Below are positions 1,059 to 64,000 of a DNA stretch of 64,000 nucleotides, piece after piece. The stretch's first letter is position 1. Every line of letters begins with the position of its first letter. Under the pieces are notes generated by a model. It did not search any database, was not told where the DNA came from, and saw nothing but the letters and a program-made list of their open reading frames with translations. The stretch covers positions 13,256 to 77,255 of the forward strand of contig JAFTPX010000009.1 in NCBI GenBank assembly GCA_017463065.1. Direction: 5' to 3'. The DNA is from Clostridia bacterium. GTDB lineage: Bacteria; Bacillota; Clostridia; Oscillospirales; CAG-272. Both the position numbers and the translations under genes were made by a program.

Positions 1059-1414
1059 TTGCTATCTTATCACAGGACAGAAAGAACATCCTCAACGCCG
1101 ACTCGGTGGAGCGGATCTACGTTGATGGAAACACGATCTACGCGAAAACCCTCACCGGGACCGTTACGGAACTCGGCACATACGAGAAGACTGAAAACAT
1201 CGCAAAGGTGATGCTCTACATCGGATTCGCAAGCGCGGCGGCGAAGGACGGCGGCAAGCTCGTCGTCGTTCCCTCCGAGGAAACCGTCGGAAACGAAAAA
1301 GAGATCGCCGCGAAAGCACTTGCGGCCATGTGCAAAGATGGGACGGTCGATGTTAAGATCGCCCCGGAACTCAAAGCCTACCTCGACAAAATGAAAGGCG
1401 GTGAGGGTAAATGA
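1055..1414 (+). CDS. Hypothetical phage protein
   Basis: ATGA start/stop overlap with the upstream gene. GGAGGTG RBS 7 nt upstream. No recognisable motif. Confidence 0.6.
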   Translation: MIAILSQDRKNILNADSVERIYVDGNTIYAKTLTGTVTELGTYEKTENIAKVMLYIGFASAAAKDGGKLVVVPSEETVGNEKEIAAKALAAMCKDGTVDVKIAPELKAYLDKMKGGEGK

Positions 1415-4400
1415 GTATTAAGGTTCTTCATTCGGGGGATTGGCACATCGGGACCTACCCCGGCCCGGAAAAGAACGGCGAAAACGTGAGATTCCTCGAC
1501 ATCTGCCATTGCCTCGACGCCCTTGTAAAAAGGGCGGGCGAGGAAAACCCCGACATCATCGTTATCGCAGGTGACATATTCCACCAAGCAAAGGTTTGGG
1601 CAGATCGCGGACTCCGTGAAAACAGGACAGCGACGCACTACGTCAGACAGCTTTCAATGATCGCGCCGGTAGTGATCGTCAGAGGCACTCCAAACCATGA
1701 CTCGGAGCAACAGTTTCAGAGCCTCGAAAACACGTTCCTACACGACGACAGCGTTCACATCATCACCGAGCCGCAAGTGAAAAAGATTTATACCTACCAC
1801 GGCGGCGCGGTACAGATCGCAGGGCTTCCCGGCTTCGACAGAGGCTTCTACAGAGCAAAGCATCCGGGACTCTCCAAAGAGGAGGAAAACGAGGTATTCA
1901 CCGAGGAACTTGCCAACCTCATTCTCGGTTTGAAAGCGTCTTGCGAGGTAGGCACACCTACGATCCTCGTTTCCCACTTCACGATCCCCGGCTGTAATAT
2001 GGAAAGCGGGCAGACCCAATTCTTCTCACAGTTTGAGCCCGTTGTTTACCCCGACACCCTTATGGCGGCGGGCTTCGACCTTAACTGCTTCGGCCATATC
2101 CACAGACCCCAACAGATCAAGGAGGCGGGAAACACCTTCTACTGCGGCGCGGTATCGGCGATGAACTTCAATGACGAGGGGCAGGAACGCGGATTCTATA
2201 TCCATTTCATTGACGAAGAAAAGGACAGAGCGGTATATAGCCATTTTTATACTCTCCCTACAAGAAAATTTAAGACAATCAGCCTCGAAGATGAAGACGT
2301 GGCGGCGATAAACGAGGGAAACGCGGTCATTGCCGAGGACGTTTGCGAAAAGATCGTTCGAGTGCTTTACAACTGCACTGACGAACATAACAAGGCGTTC
2401 AACAAAGCCGCGCTCGAACAACAGCTTTACAGCGCGGGAGCGTTTTGGGTACAGGAGATCACCCCGCAGAAAATCACCGTTTCCGTGAATAAGGACAGCC
2501 TATCCGACGAAAGCGGCCCGGAAGAAAACCTCCGTCAGTATTTCGAGGAGAAGGGCTACGAACCGGCAAAGATCGCAGAGATCATCGAGGCGGCCCGCCC
2601 CTACATTTCGGAGGCTACCGAGAATACCAAGGGCGGCGCAAAAAGCGGATTGTTCACCCCGTTGCGAATCGAAGTGAAGAACTACCGCAACTACCGGGAG
2701 GAGTCTTTCGACTTCGACGGCATCCGCTTCTGCACGATCAACGGCGAAAACGGCGCGGGGAAGTCAAGCCTGTTCATGGACGCAATGCTCGACGCGCTTT
2801 ACGAAGAACCCCGAGAAGGAGATCTCACCGGGTGGATCTGCAACGATCCCGAGGTAAGAAGCGGCGCGATTCAATTTACGTTCAGCATCGGAGACAGCAC
2901 CTACCGCGTCACGAGAACCCGCCAAAAGAGCGGCAAGGCAACGTTGAACCTATCCGAACTTGTAGACGGCGAATGGCAGGACCGTTCCGCAGAGCGCTAC
3001 AAGGACACGCAGAACATCATCACGCAGACCATCGGAATGGATAGCCTCACCTTTAAGGCTTGCGCCCTTATCATGCAGGATCAGTACGGTTTATTCCTGC
3101 AGGCTGACAAAGAGGCGCGAATGACGATTCTCGGGAACATTCTCGGCCTCGGCGTTTACGAGAAAATGGAGGATCTTGCGGCCGATTCCCTAACCAAGAG
3201 AAACCGTGAGATCAGAGCTTTGCAGGACAGGGTGACGGACGTCACCGCAAAACTTCCCGACGCGGATGCCCTCGCCGCCGAAATCGAGGATGCGGAGTCA
3301 TACATCGCTCACTTTCAAGGCGCCGTAAAAGAAAAGGCGGCAGAGATCGACAGCACAAAGGTACGACTCAACACGAAGGTAGAAGCCGCGCAAAGGGCGG
3401 TCAGAATTCAAACGAACATCGCCTCCCTTTCCCAAAAGCTCGCAGGAGCGACCGCCAACAAGACATCGCAGACGCTTATAGCTAACGGGGCCATGGCAGT
3501 ATTGAGCGAGGAGGCGGCGATCAAGGCAGGCGTGGCGGAATATGAAGCCCTGCTCGAAAAGGAAAAGGCCCTCATCTCTGCAAGGGACCGCCGGGACGAT
3601 CTACGAAAGCAAAAGGACAAGCTCGCCGCAGAAATGCAAGCCCTCGACGGGGACCTGACGAAAATTGTATCGGATATGTCGGAGGCCGTAAGAGCCTTCA
3701 ACAGAATCGAAGACCTCCTCGCCGGTGAAGAATTCCTCAAAATGAAACACGACGAATACCACGAGGCGTCCGACAAGTTGGAGGAGCTTCAAGCGGCATT
3801 CCCCGAATACACCGATCTCGTTAGCAAGCACAACGCCGCTATGATGGCATTTGCAGACTTGGACAGCAAGACAGCCGCAGAGCGCAAAGCTCGCCTCGCT
3901 GAGATCAAGGCGCTCACGCAGAGAGTGGAGCTCCTCGAAAACAGCGGGTGCCCGATCTCGGAGAAAGCGTCTTGCAGATTCCTTGCAGATGCACTCGAAG
4001 CAAAGGCCATCCTCCCCGAAAAGCACAAAGAGTACGATCAATTCGAGGCAGACGCCGCGCAAAGCGTCGCAAGAGCGCGCGAGAGCGTTGATTTGACGCT
4101 GAAAGCGGTACAGGCAAACAAGTACACCCCGGAGGGGGTTGCGCGTTTGCAGAGCCTTGTGGAGCGTTTGAGAGCGCATGAGGATAAATACCTCGCCCTC
4201 GACCGGGAAAAGGAAAAGGCGGCAGAGCTGAAAAAGAAGATCGAAGATCTCAAGGAACGGGCAAGCACCACCGACGGAAAGATGAAAGCGGTGGAGACGG
4301 AGTACGTTGCGGCTTGTGAAAGCCTCGCCACGGCGGAAACAGCCGCAGAGGGATATGACCTCCTCGCCGTTCAGATCAAGAACGCCCGTGTGTGGCTCGA

Positions 4401-5256
4401 CAAAGAAAAGGATCTTCCCGTCGCCCGTGAAAGACTTACGGCGGCTACGGCCCGAATCAACGAACTCGATGCCGAAATCGCACAGATCGAAGCGGAAATC
4501 GCCGAAAAGAAAGCGGAACACGCCCACGAGAAGCAAACCTCGGAGGGCGCAGAGGAATTGAGGGGTTATGTATCGCAGGAAGAAACCGCTATCGCCTATT
4601 GGCAGGAAGAAATCAGAAAACAATCCATGAAGCTCGGCGCATTGCGAAAGCAGGAGGAAAACGCCGCCGCCGACAGAGCGACGGTTGCGGAGCTTATGGA
4701 GCAGACCGAAAGTATCGGCAAGCTTGCCGCGATTGACGACGACCTCAAAAAAGCATTCTCGCAGGACGGCATCCCGCACAACGTGATCCGCTCCATCATC
4801 CCGATCTTCGAGGCAACGGCAACGGGCATCCTCGGGCAGATGAGCGGCGGTAAAATGAGCGTTGAATTTGTTACCGAAAAAGTCTTGAAGTCCAACAACA
4901 AGAAAGAGGTAACGACCCTTGACATCATCATCAACGACTGCAACACCGGGCGACTGCCTTACATGAGCAGGAGCGGCGGCGAAAGAGTGAAATCCGCGCT
5001 TTCAGTTATCCTTGCACTCTCGGAGATCAAAAGCACAAAAGCCGGAGTACAACTCGGATTCTTATTCGTGGATGAACCTCCGTTCTTAGACGGGCAAGGC
5101 GTACAGGCATACTGCGACGCATTGGAAGCGATTCAGAACCGCTACTCGACGTTGAAGATCATGGCGATCACTCACGACCCGACCATGAAATCGAGATTCC
5201 CGCAGAGCGTAACGATCTACAAAGACGCGAATAGCAGTCACGTTATGATGGATTAA
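1411..5256 (+). CDS. Fused SbcD/Mre11-type nuclease and SbcC/Rad50-type ATPase (single 1281-aa polypeptide)
   Basis: N-terminal phosphoesterase motifs GDWHIG, GDIFH, GTPNHD, GHIHRP. From ~aa 405: Walker A NGENGAGKSS, a long coiled coil, signature SRSGGER, Walker B FLFVDEPP and H-loop ITHDP. Confidence 0.85.
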   Translation: MSIKVLHSGDWHIGTYPGPEKNGENVRFLDICHCLDALVKRAGEENPDIIVIAGDIFHQAKVWADRGLRENRTATHYVRQLSMIAPVVIVRGTPNHDSEQQFQSLENTFLHDDSVHIITEPQVKKIYTYHGGAVQIAGLPGFDRGFYRAKHPGLSKEEENEVFTEELANLILGLKASCEVGTPTILVSHFTIPGCNMESGQTQFFSQFEPVVYPDTLMAAGFDLNCFGHIHRPQQIKEAGNTFYCGAVSAMNFNDEGQERGFYIHFIDEEKDRAVYSHFYTLPTRKFKTISLEDEDVAAINEGNAVIAEDVCEKIVRVLYNCTDEHNKAFNKAALEQQLYSAGAFWVQEITPQKITVSVNKDSLSDESGPEENLRQYFEEKGYEPAKIAEIIEAARPYISEATENTKGGAKSGLFTPLRIEVKNYRNYREESFDFDGIRFCTINGENGAGKSSLFMDAMLDALYEEPREGDLTGWICNDPEVRSGAIQFTFSIGDSTYRVTRTRQKSGKATLNLSELVDGEWQDRSAERYKDTQNIITQTIGMDSLTFKACALIMQDQYGLFLQADKEARMTILGNILGLGVYEKMEDLAADSLTKRNREIRALQDRVTDVTAKLPDADALAAEIEDAESYIAHFQGAVKEKAAEIDSTKVRLNTKVEAAQRAVRIQTNIASLSQKLAGATANKTSQTLIANGAMAVLSEEAAIKAGVAEYEALLEKEKALISARDRRDDLRKQKDKLAAEMQALDGDLTKIVSDMSEAVRAFNRIEDLLAGEEFLKMKHDEYHEASDKLEELQAAFPEYTDLVSKHNAAMMAFADLDSKTAAERKARLAEIKALTQRVELLENSGCPISEKASCRFLADALEAKAILPEKHKEYDQFEADAAQSVARARESVDLTLKAVQANKYTPEGVARLQSLVERLRAHEDKYLALDREKEKAAELKKKIEDLKERASTTDGKMKAVETEYVAACESLATAETAAEGYDLLAVQIKNARVWLDKEKDLPVARERLTAATARINELDAEIAQIEAEIAEKKAEHAHEKQTSEGAEELRGYVSQEETAIAYWQEEIRKQSMKLGALRKQEENAAADRATVAELMEQTESIGKLAAIDDDLKKAFSQDGIPHNVIRSIIPIFEATATGILGQMSGGKMSVEFVTEKVLKSNNKKEVTTLDIIINDCNTGRLPYMSRSGGERVKSALSVILALSEIKSTKAGVQLGFLFVDEPPFLDGQGVQAYCDALEAIQNRYSTLKIMAITHDPTMKSRFPQSVTIYKDANSSHVMMD

Positions 5257-8351: not shown

Positions 8352-9404
8352 ATGAGATTATTTTCCACAGAACAAGTATCAAAGTACCATCCCGATAAGT
8401 ACGCGGATCAGATCAGCGACGCGATCCTCACCGCTTGCTTGCAGGAAGACCCGGACAGCCGTGTAGCCTGCGAGTGCATGGTGAAAGGCAAAACCGTCAT
8501 TCTCGCCGGAGAGATCACCACCAACGCAAAGATCAATTACGGCGACATTGCTTGCCGCGTCGGAAGCAAGCTCCGTTACCCCGTCCGCCAAGTGCTGACC
8601 TACATCGAAACGCAGTCACCCGAAATCGCAGGCGGCGTGAAGAGCGGAGAAGATCTCCGCGCCGGGGATCAAGGCATCATGTTCGGCTACGCTTGCAATC
8701 AGACCGAAAGCGGCTTACCGTATGCGTTCGATTTGGCGAACAAGATCATCGCCCTCATCGAAAACGATTCAGAGCAACCGAGATCAGCCCTCAAAGGCGA
8801 CGCAAAATGCCAAGTGACCGTTGACCTCGACAAGCCCGCAGACAACCGTAGCCTCGTGGAAATCCTTATCAGCGTATGCCACAAAGAGGAATACAGCCTC
8901 GAGGAGATCCGCAAATACGTTGAGGGGCTTGTGGTATTCAGCGGCACCGGCATCGGAGAAGCAACGCTCAACATCAACCCGGCAGGAAGATGGACCATCG
9001 GCGGTCCGACGGCAGACTGCGGACTCACGGGAAGAAAGATCGTGTGCGATCAGTACGGCGGCTTTTGCCCCGTAGGCGGCGGAGCGTTTTCGGGCAAAGA
9101 CCCCTCAAAGGTTGACCGCTCGGCGGCTTACATGGCAAACGTGATCGCCCGCGACCTCGTGGAGAACCACGACCTCGAATGGTGCGAAGTACAGCTCGCT
9201 TACGCCATCGGGGAAGCACAGCCCATGAGCGTAACCGTCAAGAGCAACAGACCGCGCATCGACAGCAAGCTCGCAGAGGCCGTGAGAGAAACCTACGACC
9301 TCACTCCCTACGGGATCATCACTTACCTCGATCTCCTCAACGTGGACTACGAGAAGCTCGCAGAGGGCTGTCACTACCGCATGGAGCTCCCGAAAAGAGG
9401 GTAG
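8352..9404 (+). CDS. metK: S-adenosylmethionine synthetase (methionine adenosyltransferase), phage-encoded, ~350 aa
   Basis: MetK hallmarks HPDKYADQISDAIL, AGDQGIMFGYA, GGPTADCGLTGRKIV and GGGAFSGKDPSKVDRSAAY. ATG 8352 with GGAGAA RBS. Confidence 0.9.
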   Translation: MRLFSTEQVSKYHPDKYADQISDAILTACLQEDPDSRVACECMVKGKTVILAGEITTNAKINYGDIACRVGSKLRYPVRQVLTYIETQSPEIAGGVKSGEDLRAGDQGIMFGYACNQTESGLPYAFDLANKIIALIENDSEQPRSALKGDAKCQVTVDLDKPADNRSLVEILISVCHKEEYSLEEIRKYVEGLVVFSGTGIGEATLNINPAGRWTIGGPTADCGLTGRKIVCDQYGGFCPVGGGAFSGKDPSKVDRSAAYMANVIARDLVENHDLEWCEVQLAYAIGEAQPMSVTVKSNRPRIDSKLAEAVRETYDLTPYGIITYLDLLNVDYEKLAEGCHYRMELPKRG

Positions 9405-9408
9405 GCAC

Positions 9409-10287
9409 ATGAGAATAGGATTGATCGATGTAGACAGCCACAATTTCCCCAACCTCGCACTCATGAAGTTGTCCGCACATCATAAAGCCAACGGAGACAC
9501 GGTTGAATGGTACGATCACAAAAAGCATTACGACATCGTATATCAGTCAAAAGTCTTTGATAGCACCTACAGCAAAGACATTACATTCACACCAAACGCG
9601 GACACAGTAATAAAGGGCGGCACCGGCTATGGGTTAGATAACGCCCTCCCGGACGCAGTAGAACACATCATGCCCGATTACTCGCTATATGGGATCACAG
9701 ACACGGCATACGGATTTTTGACACGCGGTTGTCCGCGGCATTGCGAATTTTGCATCGTCGGGGACAAAGAGGGCTTGCGAAGCGTAAAGGTTGCGGATCT
9801 TTCTGAATTTTGGAACGGACAGCAAAAAATCGAACTACTCGACCCAAACCTCTTGGCTTGCAAAGACCGCATGGAGCTTTTGGATCAGCTCATCGAAAGC
9901 CGCGCAATCGTAAACGTCAACCAAGGATTCGACATTCGCCTCGCCAACGAAGAAATCGCAGAAAAACTCGGTAGAATGCGGATCAAGCGCGTTCACTTCG
10001 CGTGGGACAATCCACATCAGGACTTGACGGAGCATTTCCGCCGATTCGCAACGGCTTACAGGCGCAAGGCTGTCAGCACCAAGGTGGTATACATACTCGT
10101 CAATTTCAATTCCACGATGGAGGAAAACCTACACCGCATTTACACGGTACGAGACCTCGGCTACGACCCGTATGTTATGGTTTACGACAAACCAAACGCC
10201 CCGCGCGAAATAAGAAAATTGCAACGGTGGGTGAATAACAAAATCATATTCCGAAAATGCCACCGATTCGAAGATTACGAGGTATAA
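9409..10287 (+). CDS. Radical SAM enzyme 1 (Rossmann/B12-binding-like N-terminal domain)
   Basis: CPRHCEFC (CxxxCxxC) cluster motif. The N-terminal RIGLIDVDSHNFPNLALMKLSAHHKANGDTV resembles the N-domain of class B radical SAM enzymes. Starts 4 nt after the metK stop. Confidence 0.8.
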   Translation: MRIGLIDVDSHNFPNLALMKLSAHHKANGDTVEWYDHKKHYDIVYQSKVFDSTYSKDITFTPNADTVIKGGTGYGLDNALPDAVEHIMPDYSLYGITDTAYGFLTRGCPRHCEFCIVGDKEGLRSVKVADLSEFWNGQQKIELLDPNLLACKDRMELLDQLIESRAIVNVNQGFDIRLANEEIAEKLGRMRIKRVHFAWDNPHQDLTEHFRRFATAYRRKAVSTKVVYILVNFNSTMEENLHRIYTVRDLGYDPYVMVYDKPNAPREIRKLQRWVNNKIIFRKCHRFEDYEV

Positions 10288-10288
10288 A

Positions 10289-11302
10289 ATGGAACACGCT
10301 AAAATCATTCACGGCGATAGTCTCGAAGTCTTGAAAACCCTCCCCGACTGTTCGATCGATTGTTGCGTTACCTCTCCTCCTTACTACGGACTGAGAAACT
10401 ACGGGAGCGACGGGCAAATCGGTTTAGAGGAAACCCCGGAGGAGTACATACAGAAACTTGTTGAGATATTCAGAGAGGTACGACGCGTTCTTAAGGACGA
10501 CGGCACGCTATGGGTTAACATCGGCGACAGTTACGCAGGAAGCAGAAAAGGGTTGATGAAAAACGGGACTCATTCCGCAGGACCATCGAAGTCAGACAAA
10601 CACCTCGCGAAAATAACCGGACTGCAACCGTGCAAAACACCGGGGATAAAAAGAAAAGACCTCATCGGTATACCGTGGCTTCTCGCATTCGCTTTACGGC
10701 AAGACGGTTGGTATTTACGGCAGGACATTATTTGGAACAAGCCCAACGCGATGCCGGAAAGCGTCAAGGACCGTTGCACAAAGAGCCACGAATACATTTT
10801 CCTTTTTAGCAAATCGGGACGGTATTTTTTCGACCACGAGGCAATAAAAGAACCTTGCGTAGGATACGACAATAGACCGCCTGCAGGAAGCAACGGGACG
10901 TTGAAACCCAATTCTCGAAAGAGGAAAGGCAATGCAAAGTCATTCCGAGGGGGAGGCGCATATACGTGCGGCAGATCCTTCGAAAACAGCGCAAACGTCG
11001 AAAGACAGACACACGGTAACACCCCCAATGAAAAGGGAACGCGGAACAAGCGGAGCGTTTGGAGCGTAGCTACACAGGGGTACAAAGGAGCGCATTTTGC
11101 AACTTTCCCCGAAAAGCTTGTTGAGCCTTGTATATTGGCAGGATCAAAACCGGGCGGAACGATCATCGACCCGTTTTCGGGGAGTGGGACAACGGGCGCA
11201 GTCGCAATAAGAAACAGCCGCAAATACATCGGGATTGAAATAAATCCCGAATATGTAGAACTATCATCAGACAGACTCGCAAAGGAGGAGGAGAAAAAAT
11301 GA
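10289..11302 (+). CDS. DNA methyltransferase, beta-class N4-C/N6-A (SPPY type)
   Basis: Motif IV SPPY lies near the N-terminus (CCVTSPPYYGLRNY) and motif I FSGSGTTG near the C-terminus. Starts 1 nt after the upstream stop. Confidence 0.85.
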   Translation: MEHAKIIHGDSLEVLKTLPDCSIDCCVTSPPYYGLRNYGSDGQIGLEETPEEYIQKLVEIFREVRRVLKDDGTLWVNIGDSYAGSRKGLMKNGTHSAGPSKSDKHLAKITGLQPCKTPGIKRKDLIGIPWLLAFALRQDGWYLRQDIIWNKPNAMPESVKDRCTKSHEYIFLFSKSGRYFFDHEAIKEPCVGYDNRPPAGSNGTLKPNSRKRKGNAKSFRGGGAYTCGRSFENSANVERQTHGNTPNEKGTRNKRSVWSVATQGYKGAHFATFPEKLVEPCILAGSKPGGTIIDPFSGSGTTGAVAIRNSRKYIGIEINPEYVELSSDRLAKEEEKK

Positions 11303-12003
11303 AACCGATCTACGTTCCGAAAGGCAAAGCCAAAGAATACGGAGATTACGCCCTCAACATCTATACGGGCTGTCCTCACCGATGTTTTTACTGCTTTGCA
11401 CCGAATGTTTTGCGCCGGGAAAAGGAACAGTTTCACGCGGTTGTAAAACCCCGGGAGAACATCGTTGAGGAAACGAGAAAGCAGATCGAGAAAGAGGGCA
11501 TCACGGGGAAGCTCATTCACCTGTGTTTCACATGCGATCCATACCCCCTCGGCCACGACACAACGGTTACGCGAGAGATTATATCCCTGCTCAAAAGCAC
11601 CGGGAACAACGTGCAAATCCTTACCAAAGGCAATGGCCGCCGCGACTTCGATTTGCTCGGACCGGAAGATTGGTACGGCATAACCCTCGACGGCGGGCTC
11701 ACCTTCAAACATGAAGTTGCTTCTTTCCCCGTTACAAGAGCGGAGACGCTACGAGAGGCTCACGCAAGAGGGATAAAAACTTGGGTGTCGTTTGAGCCTG
11801 TTCTTAACGCAGAAACCGTGCTGAAAAACATCAAATACGTCGCAGAATTTGTAGATAAGGTGAAAATCGGCAAACTCAACTACCACCCATCGGATATTGA
11901 TTGGGCGGAATTTGGAAGGAAAGCCGAAAGCCTATGTCAGAAACTCGGACTCGACTACTACATCAAAGAGTCTCTCCGGGCGGAAATGGAGGCGGCAAAA
12001 TGA
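11299..12003 (+). CDS. Radical SAM enzyme 2 (small, SplB/COG1533-like)
   Basis: CPHRCFYC CxxxCxxC motif close to the N-terminus. ATGA overlap with the methyltransferase stop. Confidence 0.75.
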   Translation: MKPIYVPKGKAKEYGDYALNIYTGCPHRCFYCFAPNVLRREKEQFHAVVKPRENIVEETRKQIEKEGITGKLIHLCFTCDPYPLGHDTTVTREIISLLKSTGNNVQILTKGNGRRDFDLLGPEDWYGITLDGGLTFKHEVASFPVTRAETLREAHARGIKTWVSFEPVLNAETVLKNIKYVAEFVDKVKIGKLNYHPSDIDWAEFGRKAESLCQKLGLDYYIKESLRAEMEAAK

Positions 12004-12404
12004 GCAGAGAGATTTTATTCCGGGGGAAGCGAACCGACAAAGACGAGTTTGCCGAAGGATATTTCGGAGTGTTCAAAGGTGTGCCACAAATTTATGTTCC
12101 TTTTACAGAGAAAGAGGAAAAAGAAAACGAGGGGCACATCTTCTCTGCGATAGGCGGCCTTTGGCACAAAGTTGTCCCCGAAACCGTGGGCCAGTACACG
12201 AACCGGGACGCGGCGAACGGAAAGATCTTCGAGGGGGACATCTTGCAGAGTCCCAAGGGAGAGATATTGGTAGCCGCATACGCCGGCACTCAATTCACCT
12301 TGCGACAGCTTAACGGCAGGGCGAAAACATGGCTACACGCAAATTCCTATAGGATCATCGGGAATAAATTCGATAACCCGGAGCTTTTGGAGGTCCGCAG
12401 ATGA
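12000..12404 (+). CDS. YopX-family protein (copy 1)
   Basis: N-terminal ILFRGKR and C-terminal IIGNKFDNPELLE are typical of YopX. ATGA overlap with the upstream stop. Confidence 0.7.
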   Translation: MSREILFRGKRTDKDEFAEGYFGVFKGVPQIYVPFTEKEEKENEGHIFSAIGGLWHKVVPETVGQYTNRDAANGKIFEGDILQSPKGEILVAAYAGTQFTLRQLNGRAKTWLHANSYRIIGNKFDNPELLEVRR

Positions 12405-16921: not shown

Positions 16922-17428
16922 ATGTTTTACATAATCATCGGACAAAGCGGATCGGGGAAAACCACATTCGCAAAAACGAATTTCCTTTCCGAGCCGATTG
17001 AGATCATAGAGGACATCATCCCTTACAGCAAATGCTCAAACGGGATCATCGCCCTCGGCAGATACGGAATCGGCAAGCGCACCGAGGGGACGGACACGCT
17101 CTCTTACAGCGCAAAGAACAACATCAAGAAGCTCCTTCGGAAGCTCAAACACGAAAACGTCCTCCTCGAAGGCGACAGGATCAACAACAAAGAGATATTC
17201 GACTTCATAGCCTCCCTCGGGGTTGGCGTTAAACTTTACCTCGTGACCTGCAGTTTGAACACGTCCATGAGACGGTTAAGAGCCGCGGGAAGCACGATTA
17301 CACCGTCGTTCGTGAAAATGACAAAGACAAAATCGAAGAGAATGTTTTTGGAATACGGACAGCGATTCAATGGAGAAATCATAAACACGGAGGAACAGGA
17401 CAATGCAAACAGCCATAATGAAACTTAA
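16922..17428 (+). CDS. P-loop NTPase / small kinase-like protein
   Basis: Walker A GQSGSGKT at residues 7-14. 168 aa, the size of a nucleotide-kinase fold. GGAGG RBS. Confidence 0.65.
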   Translation: MFYIIIGQSGSGKTTFAKTNFLSEPIEIIEDIIPYSKCSNGIIALGRYGIGKRTEGTDTLSYSAKNNIKKLLRKLKHENVLLEGDRINNKEIFDFIASLGVGVKLYLVTCSLNTSMRRLRAAGSTITPSFVKMTKTKSKRMFLEYGQRFNGEIINTEEQDNANSHNET

Positions 17429-18050
17429 AGACATTCGCCCGGCGGCATACAATCCACGTGTAGTATTAAAGCCGGGTGACGCAGAGTGGGAGTCACTCAA
17501 AAACAGCCTCGGGAAATTCGGGCTTGTAGAGCCTTTGGTCTTTAACAAGACAACGGGGAACCTCGTCAGCGGCCACCAACGCCTCAATGTATTGAAAACA
17601 AGCGGCGCAGAGGAGGCAGAGGTCGTTATCATCGAAGTTGACGAGGAGAAAGAAAAGCTCCTTAACATCGCTTTGAACAAGATCGACGGCGATTGGGACT
17701 ACAAAAAGTTGGAAGCCCTTTTCGATGAAATCGACTCCGAAGACATCAAATTCACGGGCTTTACACCGGATGAATTATACAACCTTTTCGACGGCGAAAT
17801 TCCGGAAGACGAGGACGACGACGAAGAGGAAAGTAACGGATCTACCGACAGCGGCGAGAAAGACAGCAAAGAGGCAGACCCGGAGAACCCTCCCGAGCTT
17901 TTGAAGGAGTTTCACATCTTTTTGTCATTCCCGACGAAGGATCTTGCGGAGAAATGGCTGAAAGACAGAGGCGTAGAGGCCGAATACCAAGGAATGGCCC
18001 GCAACATCACGATCAGAATGGAGGGAATCGACTATGGTACAGGAAATTAA
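17403..18050 (+). CDS. ParB N-terminal-domain (ParB/Srx-like) protein, paralogue 1
   Basis: LKDIRPAAYNPR...LVEPLVFNKTTGNLVSGHQRLNVL has the ParB-N GxxR-type core. An acidic DEDDDEEE linker and a small C-terminal domain follow. Confidence 0.75.
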   Translation: MQTAIMKLKDIRPAAYNPRVVLKPGDAEWESLKNSLGKFGLVEPLVFNKTTGNLVSGHQRLNVLKTSGAEEAEVVIIEVDEEKEKLLNIALNKIDGDWDYKKLEALFDEIDSEDIKFTGFTPDELYNLFDGEIPEDEDDDEEESNGSTDSGEKDSKEADPENPPELLKEFHIFLSFPTKDLAEKWLKDRGVEAEYQGMARNITIRMEGIDYGTGN

Positions 18051-18618
18051 GGTTGAACTGCTCAATGCGGCACCGTACAACCCCCGTATTACGTTAGAGC
18101 CGGGAATGCCCGAATGGGAAAAGCTGAAAAACAGCATCGAGATCTTCGGCAACGTAGAGCCGATTGTTTGGAACAAGCGGACCGGCAACGTCGTAGGCGG
18201 CCATCAGAGACTCTCCGTGCTGAAAAGCATGGGTTACGACACCGTACCGTGTTCCGTCGTAGACCTCGACGACAACGACGAAAAGCTGTTGAACATCGCC
18301 CTCAATAAGATCAAGGGCCAATGGGACTACGACAAACTCGAAGACATTTTGAAAGACTTCGACCACGAAGTAGCGACGGCATCCGGCTTCTCTGCGGAGG
18401 AGATCGCCGTCATTCTCGCAAACAACAACGAACTGCTCGACGACGATGATTTCAGCGATTGGGACGACGATCCCGAGGAGATCACGGTAGGCGGCAGTTT
18501 TGTCGTTACACTCGTATTCCAAAGCGAGGGGCTTGCGCAGGAGTGGGCCGAAAACGAAGGATACAAAGACCAAATCCGCGAGGGATCAAGCTCGACAGTC
18601 ATACGAATCGAAGAATAG
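18034..18618 (+). CDS. ParB N-terminal-domain (ParB/Srx-like) protein, paralogue 2
   Basis: NAAPYNPR...VEPIVWNKRTGNVVGGHQRLSVL...LLNIALNKIKGQWDY aligns along its whole length with the upstream gene. Confidence 0.75.
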   Translation: MVQEIKVELLNAAPYNPRITLEPGMPEWEKLKNSIEIFGNVEPIVWNKRTGNVVGGHQRLSVLKSMGYDTVPCSVVDLDDNDEKLLNIALNKIKGQWDYDKLEDILKDFDHEVATASGFSAEEIAVILANNNELLDDDDFSDWDDDPEEITVGGSFVVTLVFQSEGLAQEWAENEGYKDQIREGSSSTVIRIEE

Positions 18619-18629
18619 GGGGCGGCAAA

Positions 18630-19943
18630 ATGGAAAAAGACACATTGAAACAGGATTACCAATCACCCCGTTGGAGCATGGAGATCCCCGACTGTTCAAT
18701 GCCCATGACAATGGACACTTACAGCAAGTGTGCATACAACTGCCTTTACTGCTTTTCGTATTTCCAAAAGAGCCACACGCTCGACGGGTACATAGGCGGC
18801 GGACAGCCTCGGTGCGTCAACCCGCAAAAGGTTATCGACCTCTTTGAAAGCGCGATGAAGAACGACACCGCGGCAGTCACGAAATATTATTTGCAGTTCT
18901 TCCCATACATTCAGAACCGACGCATCATGCAATGGGGAGGCCTCGCAGACGAATTCGACGAATGGGAACGCAGACACGGCGTAACGCTCGAACTGCTCAA
19001 ATATTTCGATAAGATCGACTACCCGCTGTCATTCAGCACAAAAGCCGCATGGTGGACGCAGGACGAAAGATATATGTCATTGTTCCGCAAGCACGCCCAT
19101 AATTGGCACGTCAAGATCTCCATCATCACGGCAGACAAAGAGAAAGCCCGCAAGATCGAAAAAGGCGTACCGTCGCCGGAGGAGCGCATCGCGGCAATCA
19201 AGCGGTTGGCGGACATGGGCATCCACGTTACCCTCCGTTTGAGACCGTTCATCATTGGCGTTTCTTCCGACTTCAAGCAACTAATCAGCATGGCATACAA
19301 AGCCGGAGCGGACAGCGTAACGACGGAATTCTTCTGCATGGAATCAAGAGCGGACGAAAACCTCAAAAAGCGATATGCCGAAATGAGCAAGATCGCAGGG
19401 TTCGACATCCACAAGTATTACATGGAGAACAGCAAGCAACACGGCTACAAGCGGTTGAGCAGAGGCGTAAAAGCACCGATCATTCACGAAATGAGGGACT
19501 ACGTTCACAGCCTCGGTATGCGTTTCCACGTCAGCGACGCTTTTTGCCGGGAATGCAACGACGCTTGCAACTGTTGCGGCGTTCCACCGGAGTGGGGCGT
19601 AAGTCAGCAGGGCAACATCGGACAGGCGATCATCACCGCCCGCGAAAAAGGGCAGGTGCACTTCTCCGACATTTCGGAGGGCATCAACAAGTATTTCTCG
19701 TTCCCGTGGTGCGGCGCGGCAGGGTACAACACAGGTAGCAACAAAGCCCGAGCACTCAACTACGACACGACAATGGCGCAGTTCCTACGGGAGAATTGGA
19801 ACACCCCAAGCAAGGGAACAAGCCCCGCCAAAGGCTACGGAGGAATCCTACGGCCCATCGGAAGGGACAGCAACGGCGACATAGTTTATAAATATGCACT
19901 CAAAGGAGAGGAGGAAAATGGCAGGAAGGAGCAAAAGCATTAA
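18630..19943 (+). CDS. Radical SAM enzyme 3 (437 aa, SplB/COG1533-like)
   Basis: CAYNCLYCF CxxxCxxC motif ~35 aa from the start. ATG 18630 follows GGGGGCGG. The track ORF extends upstream in frame. Confidence 0.75.
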   Translation: MEKDTLKQDYQSPRWSMEIPDCSMPMTMDTYSKCAYNCLYCFSYFQKSHTLDGYIGGGQPRCVNPQKVIDLFESAMKNDTAAVTKYYLQFFPYIQNRRIMQWGGLADEFDEWERRHGVTLELLKYFDKIDYPLSFSTKAAWWTQDERYMSLFRKHAHNWHVKISIITADKEKARKIEKGVPSPEERIAAIKRLADMGIHVTLRLRPFIIGVSSDFKQLISMAYKAGADSVTTEFFCMESRADENLKKRYAEMSKIAGFDIHKYYMENSKQHGYKRLSRGVKAPIIHEMRDYVHSLGMRFHVSDAFCRECNDACNCCGVPPEWGVSQQGNIGQAIITAREKGQVHFSDISEGINKYFSFPWCGAAGYNTGSNKARALNYDTTMAQFLRENWNTPSKGTSPAKGYGGILRPIGRDSNGDIVYKYALKGEEENGRKEQKH

Positions 19944-20418
19944 GTCTTGGGAACGTCAACCCAAGGAAAGTGTGCAAGCCTACGAAGCCTTTTCCCTCTA
20001 CCTCGAATTGGGGTACAAACGCACTGTGCGAAAAGTGGCACAGGACTTGAACAAATCCCTGTCGCTCATAGGCGGATGGAGTAGCACGTGGAATTGGCAA
20101 CAAAGAAGCGCGGACTACGACGCAGAATTGAAGCGGCAGGAGTTTGAGGAAGCCAAAAAAGCGATCAAGAAAATGCAGGAGCGGCACATACAAACGGCCA
20201 TGCTCCTGCAAAAGAAAGCGTTGCAGGCCCTCGAAAAGAAAGACATCGAATCTTTCACCCCGCAAGAGATCCTACGCTTCATAACCGAGGGCGCGAAACT
20301 CGAAAAAGCGACCCGAGAGGAAGCCAACCCCGCAACGGAGAACGCCAACGGCCCGGGCAGTCTTGCCGACACGATCATAGCGGCGTATGAGAAACGGAGA
20401 GGAGGCGGCGGTGAATGA
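19918..20418 (+). CDS. terS: Terminase small subunit (putative)
   Basis: Lies directly upstream of terL with an ATGA overlap. N-terminal HTH-like YEAFSLYLELGYKRTVRKVAQDL. GGAGAGGAGG RBS. Confidence 0.65.
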   Translation: MAGRSKSIKSWERQPKESVQAYEAFSLYLELGYKRTVRKVAQDLNKSLSLIGGWSSTWNWQQRSADYDAELKRQEFEEAKKAIKKMQERHIQTAMLLQKKALQALEKKDIESFTPQEILRFITEGAKLEKATREEANPATENANGPGSLADTIIAAYEKRRGGGGE

Positions 20419-54659: not shown

Positions 54660-56396
54660 ATGAGCAATTTGACAGTTTCCAAAATTACCGAGCAGGACAA
54701 CCAATTCTACCCGACCCCCGACTCTTTTTTGGAGAAGATCGGTATAGACTTCAACAGCCAAATCAAAAGCTTCTGCAAAGAGCACCGATACGATATCCGC
54801 GTCCTTGAACCGAGCGCAGGAAAAGGAAACATCGCAGATCACCTCAAAACATGGGGCGGGTACAGTTTCAGCACCACGCCGCGGTGCAAAGTGGAGTGTG
54901 TGGAACTCGACCCCAATTTGAGAATGATCTTGAAGGGGAAGAACTACCCCGTCGTGCACGATGATTTCCTCACCTTCGACACGTACACGAATTACGATCT
55001 GATCTTTATGAACCCGCCGTTCGAATCCGCAGATAAGCACCTTTTGAAAGCGATCTCCATGCAGGAACGGTACGGCGGGAGAATCCTCTGTATTTTGAAC
55101 GCAGAGACCTTACGAAACCAGTACACGAGAAGCAGAACGGAGCTTGTCGAAAAGCTACACTTCTACAACGCCGTCGTGAAGTTTTATTCCGATGCGTTTG
55201 CCGCAGAGGACAGCGAAAGAAAAACCAACGTCGAGGCCGCAGTCGTTTGGATCGACGTTCCCGCCCCGGCGAGCCTTTACAATTCCGCGATCTTCGACGA
55301 ACTCGACAAGGCAGAGCAAGCCCAATTTGAGGAAGTGCATCAGACCGAGGAACAGCAAGCCTTGATCAACATGGGCCTCGATTGGGTACACGCCTACGTA
55401 AAGGACTACAACGACCAAGTGAAGTCAGCCGTAGCATTCCTCCGAGAATACACCGCCTTTGTAACCGAATACGATGCAAGGTTCGGAAGCATCGAGGGGG
55501 AAGCAAGTACATACAACAGAGCATTTTCCCTCGAAGTCAGAGGAGAGAAGAACGGGAGCATAAATCATTTCCTTTTGGTCACGAGAAGACTCTATTGGAA
55601 AGCCCTTTTCGCAAACCCGAAATTCACCGGCAAGCTCACAAACCGGCTACAAGATGAATTGCGGTCCCGATTGGACGACATGGCGAACATCGAGTTCAAC
55701 GCGAAAAATATCCTGCTTCTCATGGAGGAAAACATGAGAGCAACGGCAAAGGGCATCGAAGCGGAGATCCTCGACCTTTTCGACGATCTGACAAAACATG
55801 CGCAGTATGACGGGTGCGACAACGTCCACTACTACAACGGGTGGAAAACGAACAGCGCACACAAGCTGAACAGAAAGATCATCATTCCGTTCTACGGGGT
55901 ATGGAAGCAAGAAACGCGCTATAAGTGTCGCGGGACATATTGTTACCGCGACGGCTACGAGTACCGCCTCGACAAATACGGGTCGATCAGAAAGCTCACC
56001 GACATTTCCAAAACCTTGAACTACCTTGCAAAAGGGATCTGCGGCTTGGAAGACATGGAGCACTTGGGGGCGGTTATCGAACGGAATTTCGACGCCGGGA
56101 ACGCAAAGAACATCGAGACCGAGCATCTGATCTTGACGTTCTACAAAAAAGGCACTTGCCATTTGAAATTCAAGAACGAGGATCTGTTGGAAAAATTCAA
56201 TCTGTTCGCCTCGCAAAGAAAAGGTTGGTTACCGCCTTCCTACGGAACCAAGGACTACAAGAACATGACCCAAGAGGAACAGATCGCCATCGACGAATTC
56301 CAAGGGGAGGCGGCTTACAACAGGATCATGGAAAACAAGGCGGCATTCATCGTGGGCGCTCCCGATCTGTTGATGCTTGGAGGAGCGAGAGAATGA
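54660..56396 (+). CDS. N6-adenine-type DNA methyltransferase (NPPF) with a DUF4942-like C-terminal domain
   Basis: Motif I VLEPSAGKGNI and motif IV IFMNPPF. The C-terminal YYNGWKTNSAHKLNRKIIIP ... FYKKGTCHLKF ... KGWLPPSYG is typical of DUF4942. Confidence 0.8.
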   Translation: MSNLTVSKITEQDNQFYPTPDSFLEKIGIDFNSQIKSFCKEHRYDIRVLEPSAGKGNIADHLKTWGGYSFSTTPRCKVECVELDPNLRMILKGKNYPVVHDDFLTFDTYTNYDLIFMNPPFESADKHLLKAISMQERYGGRILCILNAETLRNQYTRSRTELVEKLHFYNAVVKFYSDAFAAEDSERKTNVEAAVVWIDVPAPASLYNSAIFDELDKAEQAQFEEVHQTEEQQALINMGLDWVHAYVKDYNDQVKSAVAFLREYTAFVTEYDARFGSIEGEASTYNRAFSLEVRGEKNGSINHFLLVTRRLYWKALFANPKFTGKLTNRLQDELRSRLDDMANIEFNAKNILLLMEENMRATAKGIEAEILDLFDDLTKHAQYDGCDNVHYYNGWKTNSAHKLNRKIIIPFYGVWKQETRYKCRGTYCYRDGYEYRLDKYGSIRKLTDISKTLNYLAKGICGLEDMEHLGAVIERNFDAGNAKNIETEHLILTFYKKGTCHLKFKNEDLLEKFNLFASQRKGWLPPSYGTKDYKNMTQEEQIAIDEFQGEAAYNRIMENKAAFIVGAPDLLMLGGARE

Positions 56397-57535: not shown

Positions 57536-58720
57536 ATGAAAAAGAAGCTCTTGATCGCCCTGATCGCCCTTGTGTTAGCCGTGGTCCTTATCGTTGCGGC
57601 GGCGGTGCTCCTGCTTCCGCAGTATCATTATTCCCGCGCGCTTTCGCTGATGGAAGAAAAGAACTACAACGAAGCATACGTACATTTGAAAAAATGCGAG
57701 AATTTCAAGGACAGCAAAGAGCTCCTTGAGAACTTCGTGACCATTTACGACGCCTACACCGTTACCAACGGCGCCGGGGAGATTCAATCCAAAAAGGAAT
57801 ACACCTACGACGAAAACGATAACCTGATCCTTGAGCAAAGTTTCGGAAAAGACGGTGCCGCCGGATCCAAAATCGAATATGCGTATGACGAAAACGGCAA
57901 CGAGATCCTTTTGATCATCTACGATAAAAACGGGAATATTACCACCAAATCCGAACGGGAATACGACGAATACGGAAATATGATCCTGTCAAAAGGCTTT
58001 AAAACCATCGATCATGTTGTCACCAATTCCACCTCCAAACACGAATACGAATACGATTCAAACGGCAACGTGCTTCAAGAAACCACTTATGATGAAAAGG
58101 ATCGGTTCAAGAGCCGCTACAGATGCGAGTACGACGAGAATAACAACAAAACCCTTGTGATCTACTACGACGAAGAGGGAGAAGCTGAGTCCCGCACCGT
58201 ATACGAATATGACGAAAACGGCAACGTGACCTTTGAAATCCACTATAACAAAAACGATGCAGTGACCACCAGCCACGAATGGGAATACGACGCAAAAGGA
58301 AATCTCACCCTTCGCGTGAGCTATGACAAAAACGGAAAGATCACGAGCAAAACCGAATACACGTACACCGAAGACGGCTGGGAGTCCTTCTCCATCACTT
58401 ACGCCGATGCCCCCCAGTATGACGATCTTACGCTCGAACAAAAGTACGACAAAAACGGCAACGAGATCCTTTCGATCAGCCGTAACGACGGCAACCTTAT
58501 GTTCCACGGCGAGTACGAATACGACGAACACGGCAACATGACCCTTGAAACCGGCTATGATGAAAACGGTAACGTTGGATATCAGTTTAAATTCGAGTAC
58601 GAATACGACGAATACGGTAACATGACCCTTAAGATCGAATACGACAACGACGGCAACGTGAAGGCCAAAACCGAATTCACCAACCCGAGATTTACTTACA
58701 GGCCCCAAGAAGACGAATAA
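57536..58720 (+). CDS. Membrane-anchored YD-repeat (RHS-type repeat) protein
   Basis: An N-terminal TM helix, then about 15 copies of the YxYDxxGN motif. Confidence 0.75.
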   Translation: MKKKLLIALIALVLAVVLIVAAAVLLLPQYHYSRALSLMEEKNYNEAYVHLKKCENFKDSKELLENFVTIYDAYTVTNGAGEIQSKKEYTYDENDNLILEQSFGKDGAAGSKIEYAYDENGNEILLIIYDKNGNITTKSEREYDEYGNMILSKGFKTIDHVVTNSTSKHEYEYDSNGNVLQETTYDEKDRFKSRYRCEYDENNNKTLVIYYDEEGEAESRTVYEYDENGNVTFEIHYNKNDAVTTSHEWEYDAKGNLTLRVSYDKNGKITSKTEYTYTEDGWESFSITYADAPQYDDLTLEQKYDKNGNEILSISRNDGNLMFHGEYEYDEHGNMTLETGYDENGNVGYQFKFEYEYDEYGNMTLKIEYDNDGNVKAKTEFTNPRFTYRPQEDE

Positions 58721-59770: not shown

Positions 59771-60568
59771 TTATTCGTATATAAATCTCGTTGCTAAGTC
59801 TACCCATTCCGCCACGGGAAGGGGGTTGCCGAAGGGCATGGCCTGGGTGACGTGATCTCCCAAGCACAGTCCGTGATCCCCGTCTCTCCAGATATGGAGC
59901 TCGTAGGGGATACCCTGCTTCGCCAACGCAGAGGCGAAATCCAGGGAGCAGGTTGCGGGAACGGCTCCGTCTGCGGAGGTAGCCCACAGGAAGGCAGGGG
60001 GCGTTTCCCCGTCCACCTTGGGAGGCAGGTTGAACCTTTCCAGGAAGTCCTCGGGAACCTCCGTATTGCCGTAAAGGTTCTGCAGGCTGCCGTGGTTGCC
60101 ATCCTTGCCCCCCCGCATCACGGGGTAGCAAAGGATCAGCTTGTCCGGGCGGTGGTAAGCGGGGTCGCCTTCAAAGAAGCCCTCTCCCTTGTTCCAAAGG
60201 ACGCCCGTGCAGGCGCACAGATGTCCGCCCGCAGAAAAGCCGCAGGTGGAAACGTTGTGAGGGTCGATGCCCCATTCCTCTGCGTGGTCTCGCACGTAGG
60301 CGATGGAGGCGAAGGCCTGCTTTTGGGCGTGGGGATAGGCGGAATCCGCCGTGTCCGTGCAGGTGTAGTCCAGCACGAAGGCACAGATCCCCCGGGCGGC
60401 AAACCGCAAAGCGATGGGCTCCCCCTCTCCCTCGTAGGTGAAGTAGTAGCCCCCGCCGGGGAAAATGATCACCGCAGGGCGCTTGCCCTTATAGTAAGCT
60501 CTCTCCGTTCCGTCGGGGATGTACCCGCGGAAGGGTCTGCCCATAAGCTCCGTCGTGATATATTTCAT
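59771..60568 (-). CDS. Alpha/beta hydrolase (esterase/lipase-type)
   Basis: IFPGGGY oxyanion region and the GFSAGGHL nucleophile elbow. ATG at 60568 (MKYITT) follows GGGGGAG. Confidence 0.75.
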   Translation of the reverse strand: MKYITTELMGRPFRGYIPDGTERAYYKGKRPAVIIFPGGGYYFTYEGEGEPIALRFAARGICAFVLDYTCTDTADSAYPHAQKQAFASIAYVRDHAEEWGIDPHNVSTCGFSAGGHLCACTGVLWNKGEGFFEGDPAYHRPDKLILCYPVMRGGKDGNHGSLQNLYGNTEVPEDFLERFNLPPKVDGETPPAFLWATSADGAVPATCSLDFASALAKQGIPYELHIWRDGDHGLCLGDHVTQAMPFGNPLPVAEWVDLATRFIYE

Positions 60569-60581
60569 AGCCGCTCCCCCA

Positions 60582-61619: not shown

Positions 61620-61638
61620 AAAAAGTCTCCTGTTTGTT

Positions 61639-63983: not shown

Positions 63984-64000
63984 AAAAAGCCTCCTCGTTA

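Follow-up and report, generated by a model that had tools for sequence, protein, structure and literature searches.

Phage T3 encodes an S-adenosylmethionine (SAM) lyase (SAMase), by which a phage manipulates the SAM pool amid restriction and defence. Other phages carry a gene for SAM synthetase, metK. In the Ca. Heliusvirales phages of the gut, metK is found in 58.9 % of genomes and a C5 methylase in 67 %, and these are the two commonest auxiliary genes (PMC11283538). Streptococcus prophages also encode MetK (PMC8223999). Phage-borne MetK is already on record, and the pairing of MetK with a methylase is a known and common theme. The sole radical SAM enzyme documented to install a DNA modification is gp53 of Pseudomonas phage M6, a spore photoproduct lyase (SPL)-like isomerase encoded in a cluster with gp51 (aGPT-Pplase), gp52 (a pyridoxal phosphate, PLP, enzyme) and gp54 (a 5-hydroxymethyldeoxyuridine, 5-hmdU, DNA kinase) (PMC8989533). 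Here, we analyse a 64,000 nt stretch of DNA from a Clostridia bacterium (contig JAFTPX010000009.1), referred to as the window, which includes a temperate siphovirus-type phage with genes for a DnaC-like loader, SSB, RecU, the small (TerS) and large (TerL) terminase subunits, a portal protein and then structural proteins, all on the + strand. Its genes have their nearest relatives in metagenome-assembled genomes and isolates of gut Clostridia. In this phage, metK is the first gene of a five-gene cluster that includes two radical SAM genes (rSAM1 and rSAM2) and a DNA methyltransferase gene:

8352-9404, + strand: metK, phage S-adenosylmethionine synthetase, 350 aa
9409-10287, + strand: rSAM1, radical SAM enzyme with a Rossmann-like N-domain, 292 aa
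10289-11302, + strand: orphan DNA methyltransferase of the beta-class N4-cytosine/N6-adenine type, 337 aa
11299-12003, + strand: rSAM2, compact radical SAM enzyme, 234 aa
12000-12404, + strand: YopX-family protein (PF09643, 37.7 bits)

We consider that the cluster is best explained as a mosaic accessory anti-restriction island, in which MetK would supply SAM to the orphan methylase and the radical SAM genes would be independent cargo, and put the probability of this reading at roughly 0.58. A literature search did not find a described gene set combining a phage metK with these radical SAM enzymes. In a PADLOC search, metK, rSAM1, rSAM2 and a third radical SAM gene of the window, rSAM3 (see below), matched no model of an anti-phage defence system; the methylases alone matched, to methyltransferase models.

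The coordinates, strand and products of the five genes recorded in a first-pass annotation of the sequence were all confirmed, including the YopX protein that closes the cluster and the spacing of 4, 1, -4 and -4 nt between successive genes, and the gene products were reproduced by an independent gene caller. As the same cassette was found, identical, on 7 contigs from several metagenome assemblies, the cluster is not an assembly chimera. The earlier description of the genes as translationally coupled is correct as regards the spacing. However, this has no diagnostic value because the first ~58 kb of the window are coded on a single strand throughout, with tightly packed genes. Promoter and terminator scans of the window gave no excess over shuffled sequence and were uninformative on operon boundaries. 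The YopX gene flanks rSAM2, on either side, in only 10 of 80 rSAM2 loci, and is probably a common phage gene that is functionally unconnected to the SAM genes. The methylase and rSAM2 genes are overlapped by an antisense ORF (open reading frame) of 380 aa (10570-11712, - strand), which the independent gene caller did not report and which is most likely spurious.

Gene neighbourhoods of metK and the radical SAM genes

Related loci were collected from IMG/VR using each protein as seed, and 5-6 kb was fetched on each side. For rSAM1, a further 80 loci with 8 kb flanks were taken from species-representative bacterial genomes and, together with 65 viral loci, make up a set of 145. Partner genes were scored by tblastn and then with hidden Markov models (HMMs) applied to six-frame ORFs; a short MetK-like protein was seen by HMM only. 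Where individual loci need to be distinguished, they are given as L numbers.

None of the 145 rSAM1-seeded loci included an rSAM2-like or an rSAM3-like gene. MetK-like genes were present in 5, all among the 65 viral loci and all belonging to one close clade (83-87 % identity) with a MetK of a different, short type. The 80 rSAM2-seeded loci yielded one rSAM1-like gene, no rSAM3-like gene and 5 MetK-like genes, the latter all in siblings of the window phage. Around metK (80 loci), rSAM1-like genes were found twice (one phage sampled twice), rSAM2-like genes 7 times and an rSAM3-like gene once, and the loci with a radical SAM gene were mostly siblings of the window phage. Hence rSAM1, rSAM2 and the N6_N4 methylase are each mostly found without the others.

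The sibling phages share a common backbone, orf5323, the DnaC-like gene, orf7604 and metK, in that order, and the gene content around metK occurs in at least four versions. In one, an N6_N4 methyltransferase gene precedes metK, which is followed by an ORF and a member of the rSAM1 family (409 aa, 28 % identity). In another, a C5 methyltransferase gene, metK, two ORFs, an N6_N4 methyltransferase gene and rSAM2 follow each other. The remaining versions have a C5 methyltransferase gene, metK, a Dam methyltransferase gene and rSAM2, or metK, a PAPS reductase gene and rSAM2. The surroundings of metK have the hallmarks of a recombination hot spot that gathers cargo, not of a co-inherited pathway. 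Only one phage lineage combines metK with two radical SAM genes in this way, and the combination is not conserved. The first-pass annotation had proposed one linked, SAM-fuelled pathway, had called for a survey of this kind, and had named a lack of conserved linkage in related phages as grounds for rejecting the proposal. Linkage was not retained in either related or distant phages, and the single-pathway reading fails because of this.

The gene that does accompany phage metK is a DNA methyltransferase gene. In IMG/VR, the dominant neighbour is a ParB-fused N6_N4 DNA methylase, found in 50 of 74 metK loci and directly adjacent in 33, and the second most common is the small terminase subunit. 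After de-replication of the loci at 90 % identity, a DNA methyltransferase of some class was present within 6 kb of metK in 32/43 loci and adjacent to it in 14/43. The corresponding figures for the other seeds were 14/40 and 3/40 (rSAM1) and 10/35 and 2/35 (rSAM2), and no methyltransferase was found within 6 kb in the 28 rSAM3 loci. When the 120 genes closest to metK in 34 non-redundant loci were assigned to Pfam families, N6_N4_Mtase was recorded 17 times, Terminase_4 14 times, ParB_N 9 times and HNH 8 times, as well as C5 methylase (4), Radical_SAM (2) and Dam (1); DNA methylases totalled 22. The conserved partner of phage MetK is a DNA methyltransferase, and the adjacency of the two is statistically robust.

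The rSAM1 family includes more than 8000 proteins, nearly all unnamed or named only as radical SAM protein, and homologues were found at no fewer than 577 loci in species-representative genomes; the best 80 of these loci are all in Clostridia, often with several copies per genome, which would be expected of prophages. Homologues are also carried by isolated phages of strict anaerobes: C. tetani phage phiCT453B (57 % identity), phages of Bacteroides and Phocaeicola (38-41 %), a Marinitoga virus (26 %) and viruses of Methanomassiliicoccales (30-34 %). The phiCT453B homologue stands alone, with neither a methylase nor MetK within 5 kb. Elsewhere, rSAM1 is often found among ParB-methylases, C5 methylases and PAPS reductases, beside TerS, and a methylase lies within 6-8 kb in 14/40 non-redundant viral loci and 34/80 genome loci. 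In one phage lineage, a P27-type TerS and a ParB-N6_N4 methylase have either rSAM1 or metK between them (L001 1318-4091 versus L171 5441-8300), and the two genes appear to be alternative cargo of a single insertion hot spot. In the clade closest to the window rSAM1 (83-87 % identity), the order is TerS, rSAM1, ParB-methyltransferase, PAPS reductase, short MetK-like protein (~260 aa) and a further ParB-methyltransferase. Overall, only about 6 % of all loci have a MetK-like gene near rSAM1, in arrangements of two or three unrelated kinds, and this is no higher than any base rate that is plausible for MetK in these phages. The genomic context of rSAM1 is a weak hint of a DNA-related role. No conserved neighbour was found for rSAM2, around which an ASCH-like gene, methylases and YopX are scattered; its homologues include proteins of Bacteroidales phages and of Acidianus two-tailed virus.

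Properties of the encoded proteins

The MetK protein scored 332.8 bits against TIGR01034 (curated equivalog cutoff 309.4) and exceeded the gathering scores for the three S-AdoMet synthetase domains (PF00438, PF02772 and PF02773). It also scored 257 bits against MetK proteins of solved structure in the PDB, with the motifs aligned, and 351 bits against phrog_1569. The core motifs listed in the first-pass annotation (HPDKYADQISD, GDQGIMFGY and GGGAFSGKD) are all found in the translation. The protein is shorter than cellular MetK, and on these sequence criteria it is apparently intact, in agreement with the earlier view that the phage carries its own SAM synthetase beside SAM-using enzymes. In many Firmicutes, the cellular metK is controlled by an S-box riboswitch. 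A SAM riboswitch preceding the phage metK was considered and rejected, as the upstream gene is only 25 nt away and an Rfam scan of positions 1-64000 of the window found no family at gathering score. A ribosome-binding site (AAGGAG) is located 7 nt upstream of the gene. The phage copy would be expected to escape SAM feedback.

The short MetK-like protein (approximately 256-261 aa) was found in L365 (8121-8906), L366 (8148-8918) and L367 (8008-8790), and in L001 and L003-L006. It includes recognisable HPDK, GD(N/Q)G and GGG.HGKD motifs, and its gene is placed between those for a PAPS reductase and a ParB-methylase. With 218 bits against phrog_1569, it falls in the same PHROG as the window MetK, yet it is too divergent to be detected by tblastn with the latter.

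The methyltransferase of the cluster scored 198.9 bits against PF01555 (gathering score 26.7) and 391 bits against the PADLOC MTase_II model. The positions of TSPPYY (residues ~29-34) and DPFSGSGTTG (~293-302) correspond to the beta-class motif order, as the first-pass annotation had stated. The leaning towards N4-cytosine that was also suggested is not supported, because relatives in the PDB (CcrM, M.PvuII, an N4-cytosine methyltransferase, MboIIA and RsrI) are of both the N4-cytosine and the N6-adenine kinds. There is no ParB domain in this protein and no adjoining restriction enzyme gene.

In rSAM1, the cysteines of the motif C108-x3-C112-x2-C115 are invariant in sets of 18 and of 46 homologues. 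The protein scored 366 bits against phrog_9298 and 22.2 bits against PF04055, below the gathering score of 29.5, and had no match in NCBIfam. In the AlphaFold2 (AF2) model (pLDDT 89, pTM 0.86), a Rossmann-like N-domain precedes a partial TIM barrel. In a Foldseek search of the PDB, AprD4 (6fd2) was the sole match with an E value under 1e-3 (E 2e-5, TMq 0.59), followed by lipoyl synthase, SuiB, BlsE and Mmp10, and a fold search of BFVD returned only generic B12-like or MTTase-like viral radical SAM proteins. With invariant CxxxCxxC cysteines and radical SAM enzymes as its top structural matches, rSAM1 belongs to the radical SAM superfamily, as first annotated. The B12-domain-like N-terminus that had been described is supported at the level of the fold, by the AprD4 match, and not at the level of sequence, where Pfam gave no B12-binding match. 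AprD4 itself does not use cobalamin.

Two more specific assignments were rejected for rSAM1. Similarity to the MiaB/RimO methylthiotransferases is local, at the Cys motif (E 0.005 in a profile search of the PDB), residues 1-100 include no conserved Cys, where those enzymes have an N-terminal UPF0004 domain with three cysteines for an auxiliary cluster, and the protein ends at residue 292 without a TRAM domain. PF02310, the B12-binding domain expected of a cobalamin-dependent (class B) methylase, gave no match, and the D9-x-H11 pair is lost in distant members of the family.

rSAM2 has an invariant motif (C25-x3-C29-x2-C32) and exceeds the gathering score of PF04055 with 33.9 bits, which bears out its annotation as a second, small CxxxCxxC enzyme. 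Its best PHROG is phrog_13321 (74.7 bits). The NCBIfam scores, with cutoffs in parentheses, were 46 (360) for PA0069, 37.8 (430) for Rv2578c and 21.2 (400) for SPL (TIGR04070), and a remote match to the 'mobile pair B' family was also far under its cutoff. Full membership of the SPL, PA0069 or Rv2578c families was rejected, as every curated cutoff was missed. The AF2 model (pLDDT 81) retrieved generic radical SAM folds by Foldseek (SkfB, MgmA, SuiB, QueE and viperin); SPL was not among the top 50 matches, and a PDB sequence search gave SPL an E value of 0.18. The earlier term SplB-like can be retained for a remote similarity only, and by sequence rSAM2 appears to be a remote member of the SPL/PA0069/Rv2578c (COG1533) group. 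It was also rejected as an orthologue of M6 gp53 (BLASTP E 0.27, hhalign probability 0.3 %). M6 gp53 does cross-match phrog_13321, the PHROG of rSAM2. PA0069 and Rv2578c are members of SOS/LexA regulons, which suggests that they have DNA-related roles. By analogy, this regulation, the gp53 precedent and the gp53 cross-match lend indirect support to a DNA substrate for rSAM2.

For both rSAM1 and rSAM2, sequence and profile searches of the PDB detected nothing past the Cys motif. The first-pass annotation had foreseen that these proteins might match characterised enzymes that act on something other than nucleic acid, such as the anaerobic RNR activase (NrdG). Such a match, to NrdG, the PFL activase or the like, was sought in NCBIfam, the PDB and by Foldseek, and was not found: rSAM1 had no NCBIfam match, rSAM2 scored 19 bits against the CutC activase (cutoff 360), and activases were not among the top structural matches of either protein.

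A kinase-ParB-ParB-rSAM3 module near the terminase genes

The third radical SAM gene and a second methyltransferase gene that the first-pass annotation had placed elsewhere in the phage (at 18630 and 54660) were both confirmed. rSAM3 is part of a string of genes that continues into TerS (16922-20418 in total), with TerL next:

16922-17428, + strand: P-loop kinase related to phage M6 gp54
17403-18050, + strand: ParB-like gene 1, of a type usually seen as a fusion with DNA methylases of phages
18034-18618, + strand: ParB-like gene 2, of a type usually seen as a fusion with DNA methylases of phages
18630-19943, + strand: rSAM3, SPL-like radical SAM enzyme, 437 aa, directly upstream of TerS and TerL

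The kinase scored 23.3 bits against PF18751 (Ploopntkinase3, gathering score 27), with matches to AAA_18 and AAA_33. It is in phrog_800, as is M6 gp54, and its family aligned to gp54 with an hhalign probability of 93 % (E 3.5e-7). Each ParB-like protein scored ~139 bits against phrog_620 and ~134-138 bits against the N-terminal part of phrog_498. rSAM3 scored 66.8 bits against the NCBIfam PA0069 model and 50 bits against phrog_13321, and matched M6 gp53 by BLASTP (E 5e-6 over 244 aa) and hhalign (59 % probability, E 9e-5). On these scores, the kinase and rSAM3 appear to be distant homologues of M6 gp54 and gp53, respectively.

The synteny is strongly conserved. Among 52 rSAM3-seeded loci, TerS is downstream of rSAM3 in 42. 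In 44 of the loci the sequence extends 2.5 kb or more upstream, and 39 of these have the ParB pair ahead of rSAM3. A kinase gene was found in 13/52 and a PF18724 amino acid:DNA transferase in 6/52 (28 bits in L271, gathering score 26.2). In the most complete loci, the order is ParB, ParB, kinase, transferase, rSAM3 and TerS. It is this module (16922-19943), not the metK cluster, that bears the comparative-genomic signature of a DNA-modification system, and it is the better candidate for hypermodification. The ParB-ParB-rSAM3 string may represent a new ParB-associated DNA-modification module beside the packaging genes.

The M6 gp54 gene (L364 16686-17249) is labelled 'terminase small subunit' in RefSeq, a label shared by phrog_800, which also includes the window kinase (orf16922) and the kinase of L271. 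As gp54 was shown to be a P-loop 5-hmdU DNA kinase (Lee et al. 2021, PMC8989533), the phrog_800 label is probably a propagated mis-annotation.

The second putative DNA methyltransferase gene is far from the metK island:

54660-56396, + strand: second putative DNA methyltransferase, 578 aa

The C-terminal part of this protein matches PF13708 (DUF4942, 100.9 bits), with weak Dam-like and PADLOC mad2 matches, and the N-terminal ~200 aa are matched by several PHROG families of DNA methyltransferases. This candidate methylase is unrelated to the methyltransferase of the cluster.

Other features of the window were also recorded. One ORF of 1281 aa (1411-5256) is a fusion of a calcineurin-like phosphoesterase (SbcD-like) and an SMC/RecF-type ATPase (SbcC-like), and an RHS-repeat protein is encoded at 57536-58720, towards the right end. 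Past ~59 kb, coding moves to the - strand, and in the right end of the window (60000-64000) the GC content rises from ~0.50 to ~0.59; this change probably marks the junction of prophage and host. An integrase was not identified among the window ORFs scanned. In a nucleotide search against isolate phages, only the methylase gene matched, and a close relative of the window phage was not found.

Explanations for the island and comparison with described systems

Under the explanation that we prefer, the site would be a mosaic accessory island within the early or replication region of a temperate gut Clostridia phage. Its orphan methyltransferase (beta-class N4/N6) would methylate the phage DNA as an anti-restriction measure, and MetK made from the phage transcript, without a SAM riboswitch, would yield extra SAM. 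This would free methylation and other SAM consumers from the limit imposed by the feedback-controlled SAM pool of the host, and the role of MetK would be to fuel methylation. rSAM1 and rSAM2 would be independent cargo inserted at one hot spot, gaining from MetK only generically, in that one SAM is usually consumed per radical SAM turnover. Because each of these families normally occurs alone, each enzyme would have to run a complete reaction on a ubiquitous substrate, for which a nucleic acid is the most plausible candidate.

Several points weigh against this explanation. Flanks of 6-8 kb define what the counts cover, such that partners elsewhere in a genome are outside them, and the IMG/VR loci are phylogenetically non-independent. 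Within the lineage, a radical SAM gene of one kind or another recurs close to metK: in the window itself, in L146/L156 (a very divergent rSAM1-family gene), in L147-L150 and L186 (rSAM2), and in L157 (rSAM2 and rSAM3). Moreover, the different island of the closest rSAM1 clade also holds a MetK-like protein, the short non-orthologous form, with two ParB-methylases. This recurrence could reflect a real tie of radical SAM enzymes to SAM supply that is diluted in the counts. Finally, a literature search did not find a published test of the role of a phage MetK, nor published experiments in which one raised SAM or improved methylation.

That the four genes form one sequential pathway, by which phage DNA or RNA would receive a hypermodified base not yet described, is highly improbable. 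The tight packing, the occurrence of the identical cassette in several assemblies and the lack of resemblance of either radical SAM protein to a characterised non-nucleic-acid enzyme would fit such a pathway, as would the presence in phrog_13321 of both rSAM2 and M6 gp53, a proven DNA-modifying radical SAM enzyme (PMC8989533). However, rSAM2-like genes are in 0/145 rSAM1 loci and rSAM1-like genes in 1/80 rSAM2 loci, each member is individually dropped or replaced in sibling phages, and the cluster has no hydroxymethylase, kinase or amino acid:DNA transferase, all of which are required for the known radical SAM-dependent hypermodification of DNA. A tentative alternative, unlikely and compatible with the island model, is that rSAM1 and/or rSAM2 are self-sufficient DNA or RNA modifiers or repair enzymes that, like the methylases, are kept for anti-defence; C-methylation, methylthiolation, lesion reversal or base isomerisation are possible chemistries. 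The setting of rSAM1 amid ParB- and C5 methylases and PAPS reductases, beside TerS, points this way, but the association with methylases (14/40 viral and 34/80 genome loci) is partial and lacks a proper background rate. The alternation of metK and rSAM1 between TerS and the ParB-methylase is also in its favour. For rSAM2, the remote relationship to SPL, PA0069 and Rv2578c, the latter two in the SOS/LexA regulon, and the cross-match of gp53 to its PHROG are set against scores far under every family cutoff and the position of SPL outside the top 50 structural matches. The fold matches are generic, with AprD4 acting on a sugar and SkfB and SuiB on peptides, and Pfam detected no nucleic-acid-binding domain (TRAM, HhH etc.) in these proteins.

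MetK could be a lysogenic-conversion or metabolic gene that aids the host (via the methyl cycle, autoinducer 2 (AI-2) or polyamines) and is unconnected to its neighbours. A benefit to the host was proposed for the MetK of the Streptococcus agalactiae prophage 12/111phiA (PMC8223999), and metK is counted as an auxiliary metabolic gene of gut phages (PMC11283538). We regard this as improbable here, as metK is in an early lytic-cycle string of genes rather than beside the attachment site as a moron would be, and its conserved neighbours are overwhelmingly DNA methylases and terminase, in favour of a role during replication and packaging of phage DNA. A broader proposal, which is doubtful when taken as a whole, joins both regions of the phage. 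In it, the kinase, two ParB-like proteins and rSAM3 would carry out an undescribed radical SAM-dependent DNA modification, a ParB-dependent, post-replicative variant of the M6 type acting around packaging. In the same proposal, rSAM1 would modify nucleic acid as a single enzyme of a new type, its family of >8000 proteins being confined to phages of anaerobes and recurrently beside methylases, and the MetK island would supply SAM to all of them.

If the preferred anti-restriction explanation is true, the island is one more case of a widespread putative phage strategy, in which a private SAM synthetase keeps orphan methylases, and with them restriction escape, running. As leads, phrog_9298 and phrog_13321 stand out as two large, uncharacterised radical SAM families without fixed partners that are abundant in gut phages. 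Either of these or the rSAM3 module could uncover new DNA chemistry, with relevance to sequencing artefacts, restriction evasion and the engineering of phages for the gut microbiome.

Comparison with T3 is by function, and no homology is expected: T3 destroys SAM and the window phage synthesises it, the opposite direction. Ca. Heliusvirales phages, Streptococcus 12/111phiA and Javan phages are the closest to the window in that they have a phrog_1569 MetK in a methylase-rich island (PMC11283538, PMC8223999). Relative to those islands, the window methylase lacks the usual ParB domain, the island is in the replication module and not beside TerS, and there are two additional radical SAM genes.

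For the radical SAM proteins themselves, AprD4 (6fd2) and rSAM1 are both built of two domains, the N-terminal one Rossmann-like and the radical SAM core a partial TIM barrel. However, identity is only 14 %, the lengths are 292 aa for rSAM1 and 454 aa for AprD4, and there is no sequence-level family match; AprD4 is a sugar diol-dehydratase of antibiotic biosynthesis, and its function cannot be transferred to rSAM1. SPL, PA0069 and Rv2578c (COG1533) are the best NCBIfam matches of both rSAM2 and rSAM3, at 5-18 % of the cutoffs, and rSAM2 is ~100 residues shorter than SPL.

The resemblance to M6 lies in the 16922-19943 module and not in the metK cluster. M6 gp53 matches phrog_13321, to which both rSAM2 and rSAM3 belong, gp54 aligns with the family of the window kinase, and some relatives of rSAM3 are adjoined by a PF18724 amino acid:DNA transferase. 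Unlike M6, tblastn of the window did not detect an aGPT-Pplase transferase, a PLP enzyme or a dUMP hydroxymethylase, and two ParB-like genes are present instead. Of the components expected for thymidine hypermodification, the window has a kinase-like gene and the SPL-like rSAM3, and an aGPT-Pplase is found in some relatives of rSAM3 only. Through this ParB-ParB-rSAM module (with or without the kinase or the amino acid:DNA transferase) beside terminase, temperate phages of Clostridia are linked to the toolkit for thymidine hypermodification, which to date is known from lytic phages of Pseudomonas and Salmonella.

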